Assembly: GCA_965249135.1 (NCBI GenBank)
Contig: OZ252220.1
Location: 1,184,001 to 1,248,000, forward strand
Source: Alphaproteobacteria bacterium
Lineage (GTDB): Bacteria; Pseudomonadota; Alphaproteobacteria; GCA-2746255
Length of the DNA: 64,000 nucleotides
Direction: 5' to 3'
The stretch's first letter is position 1. Each line of letters begins with the position of its first letter. A model generated the notes under the pieces. It was not told the origin of the DNA. It searched no databases and was given only the letters and a program-made list of their open reading frames with translations. Below, one piece after another: positions 29,519 to 38,666 of this stretch. A program made the translations under genes and the position numbers.

Positions 29519-31442
29519 GTAGAGTCGAGGAAGGGCGCGGTGGTTTGTACCGCATTGGCATCACTCCGTTTCCCTTCCCCGCTCATCAAGCCGGACGTGC
29601 GAATTTCCCGCATCCGGCTTTCCGACTGGCTTCATCCCGGGGCACACGGCGGGGGGCCAAGATGAACCCGGCGCAGCCGAAGCACGCCGAGATCCCCGAA
29701 CACGGTCCCAGCAGAGAACCGCGTGGTGCCGCGCGACGGCACCTTGTGACGCCTGACCAGAGAATGCCGCACGCGCTCATAGACGTAATTGTCGACCGCT
29801 CGATAGGCCGGCAGGCGCGTCCCGTAGCCGAAGTAGTGCGGCCAGCCGCGCAGCACGCTGTTCAGCTGGTCGCGCCTCGGGCCAGGGTGCCTGGTTGCCG
29901 GGCCGCAGGAGCCCTCGGACCTTCAGCTTGAGCCGAGCCACGCTCTTCCTGGACGGGCTCGCCCCCAGATACCAGTGGCCATCCTTGCGAAAGCGCTGCG
30001 GGCCGAAGCTATAGCCCAGGAAGTCGAAGCTCTCCTTGCGGCCATCGCGGACGCTGGTCTTGGCCTCGTTCAGGGTCAGTCCCAGCCGGGTCATCACCTG
30101 CCGCGTCCAGACCAAGGCCTCCCTCGCGTGTCCGCGACTGAGGATGACAAGGTCATCGGCATAGTTCACCACCTCGGCGCGGAACCTTGTGCCCTGCCCG
30201 GTGATCCGCCAGTACTTCAGAAAGCGGTTCATGTAGAGCGCGGCGAGCAGCGGCGAAACAATCCCGCCTTGCGGGGTTCCCCGTGTGCTCCCCCGGCCGC
30301 CCGTCATGCGCCGCTTGCCATCCCCGTCGGTCTCCTCGACCGGTGTCTTGAGCCACAATTTGATCAGGCGCAGGACGTTGCGATCGACGATCCGGCGCGC
30401 AACCGATTGCATCAGTTCCGCATGGGGAATCGTATCGAAGTACTTGGACAAATCCGCGTCAACCACGTCCGTGTAGCCGCGACAGAGAAGCTTGTGGACC
30501 GCCTGGACGGCATCGCCCGCAGAGCGTTTCGGTCGGTAGCCATAGGCACTGGGCTCGAGATCGGCCTCGAAGATCGGTTCGATCACGAGCTTGACGGCGC
30601 CTTGCACCACCCGGTCCCGGATCGTCGGGATGCCGAGCGGTCGTTCGCCGCCGCCGGGCTTTGGGACCATCGCCCGCCGCACCGGCTCAGGTCTGTACGT
30701 CTTGGCGCGAAGGTCGTCCCTGATCCCGGACAGCCACCCCTCCAGCCCCATCGCCTCGATCTCCTCGAAGCTCTGTCCATCCACCCCCGGCGCGCCCTTG
30801 TTGGACCGCGCCAGTCGGTAGGCATGGAACAGGATGTCTTCGCGATAGACCTTGTCGTAGAGCAGGTAGAAGCGGAAGTCCGGTTCCGCCTTCGCCTTGA
30901 GATAGAGCTTCCTCTGGAGAGTCCGGATCTTTTCAGGTGTTTGCAGGCGCATCGCCAATCACCCCGCCTCCTCTCCGTCAAAAGCGCACCAGAAGTAAGG
31001 GTGCTTCCCTCCGCCGGCATTACCCGGCATCAACGGTACTATCACCCTTTCCGATTCCCGCCCGCGCCGCCACCCGAGGTGACGTTGAGGCCGCTACCCT
31101 CGCCCGCGACGGGCCTCCCCCGATTACCCGTATCACCTTCCTTGCGTGCCGTGCCCACTACCCCGGCGGACCGGAACGGGTGCATTCGTCGGTTACTCCC
31201 CCGTTCCACGCGGCCTTCCCCTAATCTCAGGAGGGTCGGCGTCCATATCTTCACTTTCGAGGCCTGCTCAGGCTTCACTCGCGTTCGGCCCGCAAGGTCG
31301 CTCAACCGCCCAAGGCGGCCTTTGTCACAGGACTTCGGTCCCGCCGGTTACCCGACAAGACCGCCTGTCAGCTCCCAGATCAAACCGACAACTGTCTGGG
31401 TGGATCCTTCCTCCACTGGTGTTACGCGCCGTCGGGGCGCAC
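29519..31442 (-). mobile_element. Group II intron (1924 bp), antisense to host genes
   Basis: 5' GTGCG at 31442, 3' ..CTCGACTCTAC at 29519, domain V GAAAGCCGGATGCGGGAAATTCGCACGTCCGGCTT with AGC triad, domain VI, internal RT ORF. Confidence 0.93.
29632..30958 (-). pseudogene. ltrA: Intron-encoded reverse transcriptase/maturase (no endonuclease domain), frameshift at ~29875
   Basis: GAPGVDG, RPLGIPTIRDR, SAYGYRP, GTPQGG, YADD, FDFLG; domain X continues in another frame (RDQLNSVLRGWPHYF..) to 29632. Confidence 0.88.
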
Positions 31443-31869: not shown

Positions 31870-32595
31870 TTAAGCGAACTCGGCTTTCGCTTCCTCGACG
31901 GCCTTCCGGTAGGCGGCATCCGATTCGTAAGGCCCATGGGCGCGGAACTCGGAAAGCCGCGCCTTCACGATCCCGCCCCCGTGGGGCAACACCTTGAAAT
32001 AACCGCCGTCGCGGCCGATCAGGGGAAAGAAGCGCTTCCAGCGTGAAAAAACGCGCCTGGCCGTGGCCGAATGATTCTCGGCGTATTCCTTCTCCTGGGG
32101 GTCCTGCTCGAAAAGGTATTCGTGGGCCACGACGAATTCCTTCACGAATTTCCGATTGACGATCCGAAGATTCGAGATCACCCAACAGCGATCCTCGAAT
32201 TCCCAGAAATAGCCGAGGCCGACGAACTCCCCTTCCCGTGTGATGTAGGGGAAAAAGGGAAAGGCCCGGCAGGCCAGCGTCCGATTGTCCCGCTCGCAGA
32301 AGGCCGCACCTTTGCATTCGATCGCCTTGCAATCGGCGGCCGTCTCCTTGACGATTTGACGCGTGGCGGCATCGATGGGCTTGAAGCGGTGCCACAGATC
32401 CGTCCGCGACTTCAGCAGCTGCCATTCGGAGTTGTGGGCGATGGGCACGGCAGCCTCCGTCGTGCAGCACACCGGCTCGCCACCATTGAGCGGCGCGCAT
32501 TTCTTGCCGCAGTCGTAGCGCGAGATGGACGCCTGGAAGCGGTCATAGACCTGCTGGAAATGCGTGGGTTGAAGCTTCAGTTTCTTCTTTGCCAT
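31870..32595 (-). CDS. Hypothetical Cys-cluster protein (YkgJ/CxxCxxCC-like)
   Basis: DCGKKC..VCC..ECKG..FC..RTLACRAFPF..CW pattern; coding-like codon usage. Confidence 0.7.
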   Translation of the reverse strand: MAKKKLKLQPTHFQQVYDRFQASISRYDCGKKCAPLNGGEPVCCTTEAAVPIAHNSEWQLLKSRTDLWHRFKPIDAATRQIVKETAADCKAIECKGAAFCERDNRTLACRAFPFFPYITREGEFVGLGYFWEFEDRCWVISNLRIVNRKFVKEFVVAHEYLFEQDPQEKEYAENHSATARRVFSRWKRFFPLIGRDGGYFKVLPHGGGIVKARLSEFRAHGPYESDAAYRKAVEEAKAEFA

Positions 32596-32638
32596 GGGCT
32601 GGAACATACCAACCGTCGAAAAGGATTCAAGCGAAGAT

Positions 32639-32679
32639 AAAAAAGAAAAGGGGGCGGCCCGTCTTATAAGAACCGCCCC
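32639..32679 (-). terminator. Intrinsic terminator on the minus strand
   Basis: GGGGCGG/CCGCCCC stem with inner TCTT/AAGA pairing, followed by TTTTCTTTTTT on the minus strand. Confidence 0.72.
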
Positions 32680-32945
32680 AATCGGGAAACCGCAGGAACG
32701 CGGCGATCGGGCAAATTTCTCACCTTACGGAGCGCCCGGCAGCGATCGCCTTGGCGGTTTTCCTTACCCATCGTTTTCGCCGGGCAAAACCTGGCCGGTG
32801 GGAACGCGGGCCGGCCATCCTGCGTTGGCCTGAGAGGAAAGCGCACCGCAGAAACCATGACTTGCCCCGGGGAGCGCGGGCCGGGGGACTTGTTTTCTGC
32901 CCGCAACCCCCCGGGGACAAGGTTGGGCTTAAAGAGGCACCCAAA
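32639..32945 (-). ncRNA. Candidate ~305-nt structured RNA (unassigned sRNA or leader)
   Basis: Chain of about 7 adjacent hairpins bounded by an ECF-like promoter and a terminator; no convincing ORF with RBS; no family recognised. Confidence 0.45.
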
Positions 32946-32950
32946 TATTG

Positions 32951-32977
32951 GATGCCCGCATGCGCATGGAGGTTACA
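32951..32977 (-). promoter_or_regulatory. ECF-type promoter TGTAACC-N16-CATC
   Basis: AAC-containing -35, 16-nt spacer, -10 one change from CGTC; directly divergent from the ECF sigma gene. Confidence 0.55.
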
Positions 32978-32984
32978 GGGCGGC

Positions 32985-33013
32985 TTCAAGGGCGGTGGCG
33001 TCTGCGCTAGATT
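32985..33013 (+). promoter_or_regulatory. Sigma70-like promoter TTCAAG-N17-TAGATT giving a probably leaderless ECF sigma mRNA
   Basis: -10 ends 6 nt before ATG 33020; no SD. Confidence 0.5.
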
Positions 33014-33019
33014 GGCCGC

Positions 33020-33679
33020 ATGAGAGGAAACGCATCGCGGGGCCGCGCGGCGCCACCGCCGGAGGAAGAGCGAGCGCTGATCACGGGCCTGCGCGAGGGG
33101 GACGAAGCGAGTTACGAACGCCTGCTCGAGGCGTATGGCGGGCGGATGCTGGCCGTTGCCCGGCGCATCGTCCGCAACGACGACGATGCGCAGGATTGCG
33201 TGCAGGAGGCCTTCCTGCAGGCTTTTCGCAACGTAGCTCGCTTCGAGGGACGCGCCGCGCTCGGCTCCTGGCTGCATCGGATCGTCGTCAACGCGGCCCT
33301 CATGCGGATCCGCCAGCGGGACTGGCGGCAAGAAACGCCGCTCGAGGACTCGAGCCTGGAGTTCGACGCAAACGGCATGCGCAAGGAGGCCGGCCAGGCC
33401 CTCGTCACCCAGCCGGAGGACCTGCTGGAAAGCCGGGAAACCCAAGCCCTCGTCCGCAGCGCGATCGACGCATTGCCGGCGGATTTCCGTAACGTTCTTC
33501 TGCTTCGCGACATCGAAGAATACGACACCGCCGAGGCGGCGGCCCTGCTTGGGCTCTCCTTAAGCGCGACGAAGACGCGCCTGCACCGGGCGCGGGCGGC
33601 GCTGAAAAAACGGCTCGAAAAACGGCTCGAGCCGGATGGGCCAAACAAGAAAAACATTAACTTTGTAGACCGGACGTAA
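33020..33679 (+). CDS. ECF RNA polymerase sigma factor
   Basis: Region 2 DAQDCVQEAFLQAF..FEGR..SWLHRIVVN; region 4 LGLSLSATKTRLHRAR. Confidence 0.94.
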   Translation: MRGNASRGRAAPPPEEERALITGLREGDEASYERLLEAYGGRMLAVARRIVRNDDDAQDCVQEAFLQAFRNVARFEGRAALGSWLHRIVVNAALMRIRQRDWRQETPLEDSSLEFDANGMRKEAGQALVTQPEDLLESRETQALVRSAIDALPADFRNVLLLRDIEEYDTAEAAALLGLSLSATKTRLHRARAALKKRLEKRLEPDGPNKKNINFVDRT

Positions 33680-33686
33680 GAAACCC

Positions 33687-33929
33687 ATGCCGACTTGCCA
33701 AGAACTGGATGATTTTATCGTCGATTACCTCGAAGGGACGCTGCCGGTCTTTCAACGCCTGGTCTTCCAGCTGCACCTCGGCATGTGCCCGAAATGCCGC
33801 ACCTACCTTCAAGGCTATCGAAGGACGGTGCGTCTAAGCCAGGATGCGTATGCAGAGGAAAGCGACGGCCAAGCGATGCCGCCGGAACTGATCGATGCGA
33901 TCCTGGCCGCCCGCCAAGGCGAGATCTGA
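33687..33929 (+). CDS. Small soluble zinc-binding anti-sigma factor (zf-HC2/ZAS)
   Basis: N-terminal Cys plus HLGMCPKC (HxxxCxxC); 7 nt after the sigma gene. Confidence 0.9.
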   Translation: MPTCQELDDFIVDYLEGTLPVFQRLVFQLHLGMCPKCRTYLQGYRRTVRLSQDAYAEESDGQAMPPELIDAILAARQGEI

Positions 33930-36608: not shown

Positions 36609-38666
36609 TCACGTGTCGAGGAAGCTGCGCAGCTTGCGCGAGCGCGAAGGGTGCTTCAGTTTGCGAAGCGCCTTCGCTTCGATCTGGCGAATGCGTTCGC
36701 GGGTGACGGCGAATTGCTGGCCGACCTCCTCAAGCGTGTGATCCGTGTTCATGCCTATGCCGAAGCGCATGCGCAGGACCCGCTCTTCCCGGGGCGTCAG
36801 CGAGGCAAGGACGCGGGTCGTCGTCTCCCGCAAATTCCCCTGGATCGCCGCGTCCAGCGGCTGGACGGCGTTCTTGTCCTCGATGAAGTCGCCCAAGTGG
36901 CTGTCTTCTTCGTCCCCGATCGGGGTCTCGAGGCTGATCGGCTCCTTGGCGATCTTCAGCACCTTGCGCACCTTCTCGAGCGGCATGCTGAGCTTCACGG
37001 CCAGCTCCTCCGGGGTCGGCTCGCGGCCGATCTCGTGCAGCATCTGGCGCGAGGTGCGCACGAGTTTGTTGATCGTCTCGATCATGTGGACCGGGATGCG
37101 GATGGTGCGCGCCTGATCGGCGATCGAGCGGGTGATCGCCTGGCGGATCCACCACGTCGCATAGGTCGAGAACTTGTAGCCCCGGCGGTATTCGAACTTG
37201 TCGACCGCCTTCATGAGCCCGATGTTCCCTTCCTGGATGAGGTCGAGGAATTGCAGGCCGCGATTCGTGTACTTCTTGGCGATCGAGATGACGAGACGTA
37301 AATTTGCTTCGATCATCTCCTTCTTCGCCTGATTGGCCTTCTGCTCGCCGTCCTGGACCGTGCGCACGATGCGCCGAAACTCGCTGATGGGCAGTCCCGC
37401 CTCTTTCGAAACGTCGGTAACCTCGACGCGAATTTCCTTGATCTCGGGTCCGTGCTTCTTCGCGTAATCCTTCCAGCCGCGCGCCTTCAGGCGCGCTGCG
37501 CGCCGCAGCCAGTTCGGGTCCAACTCGCGCCCGAGGTAGCGCTCGAGAAAATCCTCGCGCTTCACCTTGCAGGCCACGGCCAGGCGAAGCATGCGGCCTT
37601 CCAACATCACGAGGCGCCGGTTCAGGATTTTCATGTAGTCAACGAGATCTTCGATCCGCGCGTTGTTGAGGTGGACGTCTTCCATCAGCTCGATGAGGTC
37701 CGTCTTCAGCCGTTCGTAGCGCTTCTCCTGGGCGGGACTGGTTTTCTGCGCGCCCTGCAACGCCGTGAAGCGTTTTTCCTGAAGGCGATGGAACTTCTTA
37801 TAGGTCGAGGCAATCTCGTCGAAGATCTCGAGGGTCTCGGGCATCAACTCTTCTTCCATCACCGCCAGCGAGACGGGGGCTTCTTCGTCTTCGTCGTCGT
37901 CGCTTTTTGCCCTTTCTTCCTTTGCCCTTTCTTCCTTTGTCCTTTCTTCCTTTGTCCTTTCTTCCTTTGTCCTTTCTTCCTTTGTCCTTTCTTCCTTTGC
38001 CCTTTCTTCCTTTGCCCTTTCTTCTTCCTTTTCCTCCTCGAAGCCTGCTTCGAATTTGTTCTTGTCCGCCTCTTCTTCGGCCGCCGCATTCGTGCCGCCA
38101 TAGGTCGCATCCAAATTGATGATGTCGCGGAGAAGGATCGGGCCCTCGATCAAACCCTGCCGCCAATCCACGATCGAGCGAATCGTGGTCGGGCTTTCAC
38201 AGATCCCGCCAATCATCTTGTTGCGCCCCAACTCGATCCTTTTTGCAATCGCAATCTCGCCTTCGCGGGAAAGAAGCTCGACGCTGCCCATCTCGCGGAG
38301 ATACATGCGAACCGGATCGTCCGTCCGCCCAAGCTCGGAATCGTTGTAATTACCGGCGGTGTTGCCTTCTTCCTCCTCTTCTTCCGCTTCCTTCTTCGCG
38401 TCCGCGGCGCCGTCTTCGCCTTCCTCGGTTTCGACGAGGTTGATGCCCATCTCCGACATCATTGCCATGATGTCTTCGATCTGTTCGGAGGAGGCCTGTT
38501 CCGACGGCAGGGCCGCGTTCAGTTCGTCATAGGTGACGTAGCCGCGCTCTTTGCCGCGGGTGAGCAGTTTCTTGACCGCCGCGTTCACGGTATCGATGAG
38601 CGGTGGATCGCCCCTCGTTTCGTCTGATTTTCTGGTTTCCGTTGCCGGTGCCGTTTTCGCAGCCAT
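36609..38666 (-). CDS. rpoD: Primary sigma factor RpoD
   Basis: Region 1.1, [50 protein letters not shown]. Confidence 0.98.
37906..38024 (-). repeat. 8 x 15-bp in-frame tandem repeat in rpoD: (EERAK)2(EERTK)4(EERAK)2
   Basis: Plus-strand unit TTTGYCCTTTCTTCC counted 8 times. Confidence 0.97.

Follow-up and report, generated by a model that had tools for sequence, protein, structure and literature searches.

What does a sigma factor of the extracytoplasmic function (ECF) type, encoded beside its zinc anti-sigma factor, switch on from the divergent side of its own locus? The question is raised by a stretch of 64,000 nt (hereafter the window; C1:1184001-1248000 of G000, a closed alphaproteobacterial genome of 2.12 Mb with 60% GC and a completeness of 98.75%), in which an earlier note, made from the letters alone, had proposed a structured non-coding RNA of about 305 nt as the divergent target of such a pair. 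A total of five relatives of the genus (G001 to G005) were compared with G000, G004 being 96% complete in about 300 contigs, while 55 further genomes searched share only the class. As read from these sequences, a real and conserved ECF promoter drives a structured non-coding element that is restricted to the genus and whose transcript is predicted; with some confidence, this element is taken to be a trans-acting small RNA (sRNA) that pairs through a C-rich loop, working like GsrN of Caulobacter but not being GsrN. The features on which the argument leans are as follows (window positions):

33020..33679, plus strand: ECF sigma factor of 219 aa, matching PF04542 and PF08281 over the cut-off
33687..33929, plus strand: soluble zinc-binding anti-sigma factor (ZAS type) of 80 aa, matching PF13490 (zf-HC2) over the cut-off
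32985..33013, plus strand: probable sigma70-type promoter of the sigma gene, TTCAAN-N17-TAGATT, with the same blocks and spacing in G000, G003, L024 and G005
32951..32977, minus strand: ECF target promoter, with the -35 element TGTAAC at 32977-32972, 16 nt, and the -10 element GCATC at 32955-32951; predicted start near 32945
32923..32944, minus strand: core hairpin 1, a short stem with a CU-rich loop (CCUCU in four of five genomes)
32861..32921, minus strand: core hairpin 2, a 21-bp stem with a 17-nt loop carrying CCCCC at 32887-32883, conserved in relatives
32680..32860, minus strand: 3' extension (~215 nt), in G000, G003 and G005 only, with a decayed relic in G004
32639..32679, minus strand: intrinsic-terminator-like hairpin and U-run, the predicted 3' end

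To begin with, the divergent promoter had been reported as TGTAACC-N16-CATC and was borne out, while its conservation refined it to TGTAAC-N16-GCATC. This motif stood divergent to the sigma gene in all five genus genomes with the sigma, and its spacer sequence diverged. In G000, two copies were found at a spacing of 16 nt and none at the 14 other spacings from 10 to 24 nt, for which 0.34 copies were expected per spacing. Moreover, 10 loci outside the genus with both sigma and anti-sigma matches (L018, L026 and L045-L052; 34 kb) contained six perfect copies in five loci, against 0.005 expected by chance, and no copy at spacings of 12-15 or 17-20 nt; L019, which had no anti-sigma match, and the more distant L020-L023 and L027-L043 had been left out. 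At these outside loci the promoter preceded protein genes in several cases, among them one for a CDGSH/Rieske protein and, with one mismatch, one for a DUF3179 protein. The promoter is thus, on the sequence evidence, beyond chance and real, and from its co-occurrence with the sigma we infer that the sigma binds it; the sigma very probably switches on the adjoining RNA gene. Within the passages on GTAAC (n=8) of the supplement to PMC7826278, where earlier ECF groups are covered, TGTAAC-N16-GCATC was absent.

A core of about 90 nt behind this promoter was common to all five sigma-bearing genomes of the genus. Its identity to G000 was 77, 75, 66 and 62%, compared with 47% (maximum 59%) for shuffles and with 48, 55, 56 and 63% at four-fold degenerate sites in nearby genes; in G002 the core exceeded the neutral sites by nothing overall and by 10 points when only its sigma gene was the reference. 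The stem of hairpin 2 was 17-25 bp long in the relatives and varied in sequence, whereas the CCCCC of its loop never did, being invariant in all six sequences compared, with the 6-mers of the loop unpaired at a probability (P) above 0.5 in five of five genomes. Since L024 is nearly identical to G003, the independent rows of the core alignment are five. The core folded with z-scores from -2.1 to -5.8 in all six sequences; in G000 (z -3.3), one of 200 shuffles was as good and four of 369 GC-matched intergenic windows folded as well. Furthermore, 93.8% of the cells of the core alignment paired, a value as high in only four of 500 shuffles, and the covariation score was reached by eight of 500. 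Thus, the structural conservation upstream of orthologous sigmas, which the earlier note had made a test of its proposal, was found for the core pairing in the sigma-bearing genomes.

The individual helices of the proposed chain fared unevenly. The arms 32923-27/32940-44 and 32861-72/32909-21 with its inner arm, as well as 32820-24/32847-51 and 32792-98/32811-17, were complementary and appeared as ensemble helices with P from 0.59 to 0.99. The arm 32773-77/32786-90 was not among the helices with P above 0.05, the conserved hairpin at that place being 32781-88/32763-70, and the stem 32685-93/32754-63 belonged to the cross-species consensus but had a P of only ~0.07 in G000, and its inner arm was not conserved. 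As a whole, the chain of 312 nt in G000 did not fold beyond chance (z -1.43, with six of 100 shuffles folding as well). What stood of the ~305-nt structured target is therefore a conserved, structured, non-coding element, but its conserved unit is ~90 nt, and the 305-nt form was found in three of the five genomes.

In these three genomes, the extension was 68 and 64% identical to G000 (G003 and G005), while G001 and G002 stayed at the level of shuffles. It comprises hairpins at 32818-32853 (with a UUCCUC loop), 32792-32817 and 32763-32788 and a closing stem at 32685-32763; its consensus adds four stems and the terminator. In its alignment 94.0% of cells pair, a share reached by 14 of 500 shuffles, and five of 54 pairs have changed on both sides. 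For the conserved CGUAA, a GNRA hairpin was considered and rejected, as its closing pair fails in G005. The terminator claimed at 32679-32639 has its hairpin and U-run, but the terminator scan did not list it, its loop being 9 nt and the limit of the scan 8. The 3' arm of this terminator was seen to be near-identical to the terminator directly behind the GFA gene in G002 (L010). By its four-fold sites, the flanking gene lies nearer to G002 (77%) than the sigma gene does (52%), so the history of the cassette differs from that of its flanks. In G001, a U-rich run follows the core directly, and the RNA there would be about 90-95 nt long.

The protein partners of the element were as the earlier note had described them, the domain matches listed above bearing out an ECF sigma next to a zinc anti-sigma, while the best NCBIfam match of the sigma, PRK11922, reached 179 bits, below its cut-off of 204. 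Three genes of G000 matched PF04542, in open frames of 698, 316 and 222 aa; the 222-aa frame is this sigma, the only match of ECF size, and no other tblastn match was found in G000 at E<=1. A sigma-like prophage ORF lies elsewhere in G000, near 719 kb, and escaped both searches. The anti-sigma motif C-x25-H-x3-C-x2-C was present in 10 of the 11 loci checked, and by eye the protein lacks a long hydrophobic stretch. It combines the two marks that passages of PMC7406223 give for a ZAS (class I zinc) protein, an Hx3Cx2C motif and a gene directly behind that of the ECF sigma; according to the same source, a ZAS motif may be purely structural rather than sensory. The sigma was found in four of the five relatives, that is, in five genomes of the genus including G000, and no ECF match was found in G004. 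The genus sigmas formed one clade (support 100/99), inside which G000, G003 and G005 were grouped (91/91). No sigma match at E<=1e-38 was found in 400 other genomes drawn from the phylum, and the closest sigma proteins outside the genus were about 62-64% identical at the protein level. The sigma70-type promoter of the sigma gene ends 6 nt before the ATG, so that the sigma mRNA would be leaderless; from the sequence, the gene seems to have this promoter and a leaderless start in G000, G003 and G005, while the blocks were not evident in G001 or G002. No ECF site directed at the sigma gene itself was found.

The element does not correspond to a known RNA. No Rfam family reached its gathering score at the element, either in the window or at the loci of four relatives, and, as had been claimed, 6S, RNase P, SRP and tmRNA were absent from it, each having one copy over the cut-off elsewhere in G000, so it is not a displaced housekeeping RNA. 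The tmRNA of G000 is of the alpha type, which points to an alphaproteobacterium. A candidate match to suhB/MmgR (RF00519) over the terminator was rejected, as it scored 17.8 bits against a gathering score of 41, and the true copy lies at C1:547614 with 56.6 bits. A model of the core matched a single place in every one of the five training genomes and nowhere in G004. In the latter, a relic (L059:2249-2390) lies ahead of the same downstream gene and scored 17.7 bits, versus 183-248 for the training sequences; it shows deletions and broken pairs and has no CCCCC, and G004 is without the sigma pair. This relic is a natural loss-of-function control. In phages and plasmids the element was not found except for one 31-nt match at E 0.3, and a pattern search of viral contigs gave none.

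Beyond the element, three genes have to be considered, two of them as predicted further targets of the sigma:

G000:C1:685272-685654 (L069), minus strand: gene for a Cys-rich peptide with NPCAAK repeats, behind a perfect ECF promoter; 92 aa with a signal-peptide-like start
G000:C1:1086645-1087300 (L093; also L068): Sel1-repeat gene, behind an ECF promoter with one mismatch in G000 and a perfect one in G005
31870..32608 of the window, minus strand: downstream gene for a conserved Cys-rich hypothetical protein of 241 aa, with its ATG at 32595 and a conserved extended -10-like box of its own, TG-TATGTT, at 32608-32603

The perfect promoter sites of G000 are two, namely the RNA locus and C1:685654 (minus strand), and the latter pairing of promoter and NPCAAK gene was found also in G003, G004 and G005 (four genomes with G000). 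In G002, a near-match of the promoter lies ahead of an NPCAAK gene two genes behind the anti-sigma. Since G004 keeps the NPCAAK promoter, its sigma was either lost recently or left unassembled. The genes with NPCAAK/GCNPC repeats (also L061, L063, L065 and L016) are of low complexity and encode 76-97 aa, the G002 form being longer. No Pfam or NCBIfam family matched the peptide, for which only unnamed Atlas leads below 0.9 were obtained. No MNIO/DUF692 gene (PF05114) was found in G000, while the control was positive in Caulobacter, so by the core definition given in passages of PMC12452194 the peptide is not a bufferin; it may be a metallothionein-like protein of the periplasm that stays unmodified. 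That a ZAS switch would govern an exported, Cys-rich peptide hints at metal or thiol stress. A second stretch of NPCAAK repeats, at G000:C1:1993588-1994067, is distributed across more than one frame and might be a disrupted relative of the long G002 form. The Sel1-repeat gene is, judged by its promoter, likely the third member of the regulon. The RNA would thus be an output of the module, as the earlier note had it, but not its sole output, as the NPCAAK gene and probably the Sel1 gene share the promoter. Word-literal searches of a limited set of papers retrieved no description of the RNA, its promoter or the NPCAA repeat.

For the downstream Cys-rich protein, no Pfam or NCBIfam family was found, only a weak Atlas lead (CxxCxxCC) at 0.85. 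Its -10-like box is present also in genomes without the RNA upstream, and the gene probably lies outside the module. Its start is apparently leaderless, and the G002 copy has an 11-nt gap near the start. In G001 and G002 (L015 and L016), the gene next to the core is convergent instead, encodes a MauE/DoxX-like membrane protein with a weak MauE match, and ends right behind the core, so the element is not a leader there. Bufferin clusters are accompanied by DoxX genes, according to passages of PMC12452194.

How would the module work? From what is known of the family, the soluble ZAS anti-sigma, whose motif is present here, would hold the ECF sigma until thiol oxidation or a competing metal disturbs its zinc-thiolate site. 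The freed sigma would read TGTAAC-N16-GCATC and transcribe two or three units, namely the RNA, the secreted Cys-rich NPCAAK-repeat peptide and probably the Sel1-repeat protein. The RNA, ~305 nt long here and about 90-95 nt in G001, would act in trans, its 5' core being the working part: the long stem would present the single-stranded CCCCC loop, which may pair with G-rich leaders or ribosome-binding regions of mRNAs, helped by the CU-rich loops and probably by Hfq, whose gene is present. In this way, the sigma would gain a post-transcriptional arm through the RNA, as sigmaT does through GsrN, with transcription, Hfq binding and targets all being predicted. This sRNA reading is supported by the promoter and core standing beside the sigma in five of five genomes, in one copy each, and having decayed where the sigma was lost.

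Several results weigh against this reading. Just two of 19 core pairs were changed on both sides, and the covariation came from five (core) and three (extension) independent sequences, for which relatedness alone can beat shuffles. The strain variants were mixed: of seven in the element, three retain a pair or make it better, one lies at an unpaired position, one moves the pairing by a register to a bulged U, as G005 has it, and two, both from a single low-depth contig, break pairs; as 56% of transitions keep a pair by chance, this result is weak either way. The terminator had a P of ~0.1 at full-length equilibrium in G000, compared with ~1 in G003 and G005. The core model matched none of 148 non-genus genomes of the class, nor any of 12 sigma loci from outside the genus. 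Finally, target prediction, which ranked genes by duplex energy plus accessibility under an approximate energy model and with our own set of 2077 open reading frames (ORFs), the core-loop ranking covering all 2077 and the full-length ranking 1860 genes, gave no conserved predicted target. Three of the best candidates for the C-loop (a Sel1 gene, fumC and queD; ranks 1, 5 and 35) were at background in all four RNA-bearing relatives. The one strong pairing, described below for the start of the sigma mRNA, was limited to G000, as 51 of 70 starts were as good in G003 and eight of 70 in G005, there at another site. The NPCAAK, Sel1 and anti-sigma starts also ranked at background for pairing with the RNA, and an apparent match in G003, lying upstream of the presumed transcription start, was dropped.

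The absence of a conserved mRNA target speaks for the first alternative, that the RNA is made by the ECF sigma but acts by binding a protein, serving an RNA-binding protein, RNA polymerase or the sigma/anti-sigma pair as decoy or scaffold. Also in its favour, a seed needs less structure than the long stable stem and the multi-hairpin extension provide. However, what stays invariant is a C-run in single-stranded form, no central bubble like that of 6S is present (the true 6S lying elsewhere), and the loops show UCC rather than the GGA motif that CsrA sponges carry, so that this alternative, although the best of the rivals, is considered unlikely.

A lower probability is given to the element being a 5' leader or attenuator under the ECF sigma, by which read-through to the Cys-rich gene downstream (31870-32595) would be governed. 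That gene is co-directional in G000, G003 and G005, an alternative fold in G000 sequesters the 5' arm of the terminator and leaves it the low probability given above, and CAAGG and AUUGGG are invariant in regions predicted to be unpaired. Yet in G001 and G002 the gene facing the core is convergent, the downstream gene retains its own -10-like box where no RNA lies upstream, and the terminator forms with near certainty in G003 and G005, while truncated folds showed no shared antiterminator. We regard this explanation as distinctly improbable.

About as improbable, and drawn from modelling, is the proposal that the RNA closes a direct feedback on its own sigma through the third hairpin and the sigma start, with the C-loop acting on the rest, which would make a timer of sigma, anti-sigma and RNA coupled to NPCAAK. 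In G000, the leaderless sigma mRNA is predicted to pair at its start, over ~19 nt, with the loop of the third hairpin at -18.6 kcal/mol, a value that none of 70 other starts and one of 50 shuffles equalled; genome-wide, it ranks 40 of 1860. As DNA, the opening codons of the sigma gene (33020-33038) resemble the template of the third hairpin (32827-32846) in a near direct repeat, which accounts for the strong predicted pairing, in this genome only. If this timer existed, it would be the only stress-ECF circuit of a small-genome alphaproteobacterial genus, with an undescribed secreted NPCAAK metal-binding peptide.

Less credible still is that the transcript, like Pos19, encodes a small peptide, as a leaderless or dual-function mRNA with its start at +6/+7. 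An NTG codon was indeed found 5-6 nt behind GCATC in four of the five genomes (TTG, ATG, ATG and GTG, opening frames of 74, 71, 32 and 74 codons), but the TG is the conserved base of hairpin 1, so that a start arises for three of the four preceding letters. G001 has no start, the peptides range from 32 to 74 aa, G002 shows a shift of the frame and G003 another one downstream, and the changes were mostly non-synonymous by eye. ORFs of 80 and 64 codons without a ribosome-binding site were negative on the dicodon model, although the real NPCAAK gene was likewise negative. A conserved small protein, which by the earlier note would have refuted its proposal, was thus not found, the ORFs differing between genomes in length and frame. 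Least probable of all is that there is no functional RNA, the stem serving to end or insulate the transcription of neighbours and the promoter being a remnant of a lost protein gene. In favour of this, the region as a whole does not fold beyond chance in G000, protein genes follow the promoter at several outside loci, and a convergent gene ends beside the stem in G001 and G002. Against it, the stem is retained in G000, G003 and G005 without a convergent gene that would need it, the blocks of the promoter, the 16-nt spacing and the C-run of the loop are invariant while the spacer diverges, and the element decays where the sigma is lost.

The trans-acting, C-loop-pairing sRNA hence remains the favoured reading. 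If transcribed, it would be a new sRNA family outside Rfam with a precisely defined ECF promoter, and the GsrN design of an ECF sigma with an adjacent C-loop sRNA would exist also with a zinc anti-sigma switch. As the predicted regulon is tiny (the RNA, the NPCAAK peptide and the Sel1 protein), its reconstruction in E. coli or a laboratory alphaproteobacterium should be feasible. Its range is narrow, being one uncultured genus, and its design has a precedent, so the surprise is limited. Two other features of the window were observed apart from the module: an ORF of 393 aa for a reverse transcriptase at 29777-30958 (minus strand; PF00078), group II intron-like by eye, which overlaps the end of a histidine-kinase ORF, and an RpoD-like sigma at 36609-38666 (minus strand), which carries a tandem low-complexity insert.

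How does the module compare with known systems, as described in the passages of the sources cited? With ECF16 (SigF/NrsF, RpoE7 and EcfF), which drives DUF692/bufferin operons from the promoter tGTAACc-N16-CGAA (PMC3420878, PMC6180224, PMC12452194), it shares the -35 GTAAC box, the 16-nt spacer and a gene for a secreted Cys-rich peptide among the targets. However, its -10 element is GCATC rather than CGAA or CGTA, its anti-sigma is a soluble ZAS of 80 aa and not a six-helix membrane DUF1109 protein (NrsF), and the MNIO/DUF692 gene of those operons was, as said, not found in G000. The Cuckoo RNAs (RSs0680/CcsR and alpha-r14; PMC4615179) resemble the element in having adjacent hairpins with pyrimidine-rich loops of an anti-Shine-Dalgarno-like kind. 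They need CCUCCUCCC in their hairpin loops, whereas the loops here are CCUCU, CCCCC, UUCCUC and UUCCC and none carries it; moreover, the hairpins here are unequal in size, with one copy per genome and no Rfam match. Closer in its setting is Pos19 of Rhodobacter sphaeroides, an sRNA of 219 nt in the RpoE/ChrR regulon that is linked to oxidative stress and contains a translated small ORF (PMC5036791). Like Pos19, the element would be a long sRNA under an ECF sigma with a soluble zinc anti-sigma, but no conserved ORF was found here, the anti-sigma has 80 aa without a cupin domain, and the promoter is another.

The nearest counterpart is GsrN of Caulobacter crescentus, an sRNA dependent on sigmaT/EcfG that pairs with katG mRNA and has six cytosines in its loop, and whose homologs typically adjoin their sigma locus; a single-stranded C-run is, moreover, a typical seed of pairing sRNAs (PMC5869019). 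Like GsrN, the element is ECF-linked and alphaproteobacterial, lies beside its sigma, has its 5' part as the conserved unit and shows an exposed C-rich 5' loop as the most conserved feature. It differs in its promoter (TGTAAC-N16-GCATC), in the class of its sigma and in having a ZAS partner in place of NepR/PhyR, as well as in five loop cytosines rather than six, a stem of 17-25 bp and, in one clade, ~215 nt more. A sigmaT/EcfG promoter and a location at ecfG-nepR-phyR, by which GsrN is recognized, were not found, the neighbour being the zf-HC2 pair; the likeness is one of described features, and Rfam gave no match at any gathering score. The element would be GsrN-like in action, with a sigma and a promoter other than those that define GsrN, and an ECF-driven sRNA beside its sigma is a design already known from GsrN itself.

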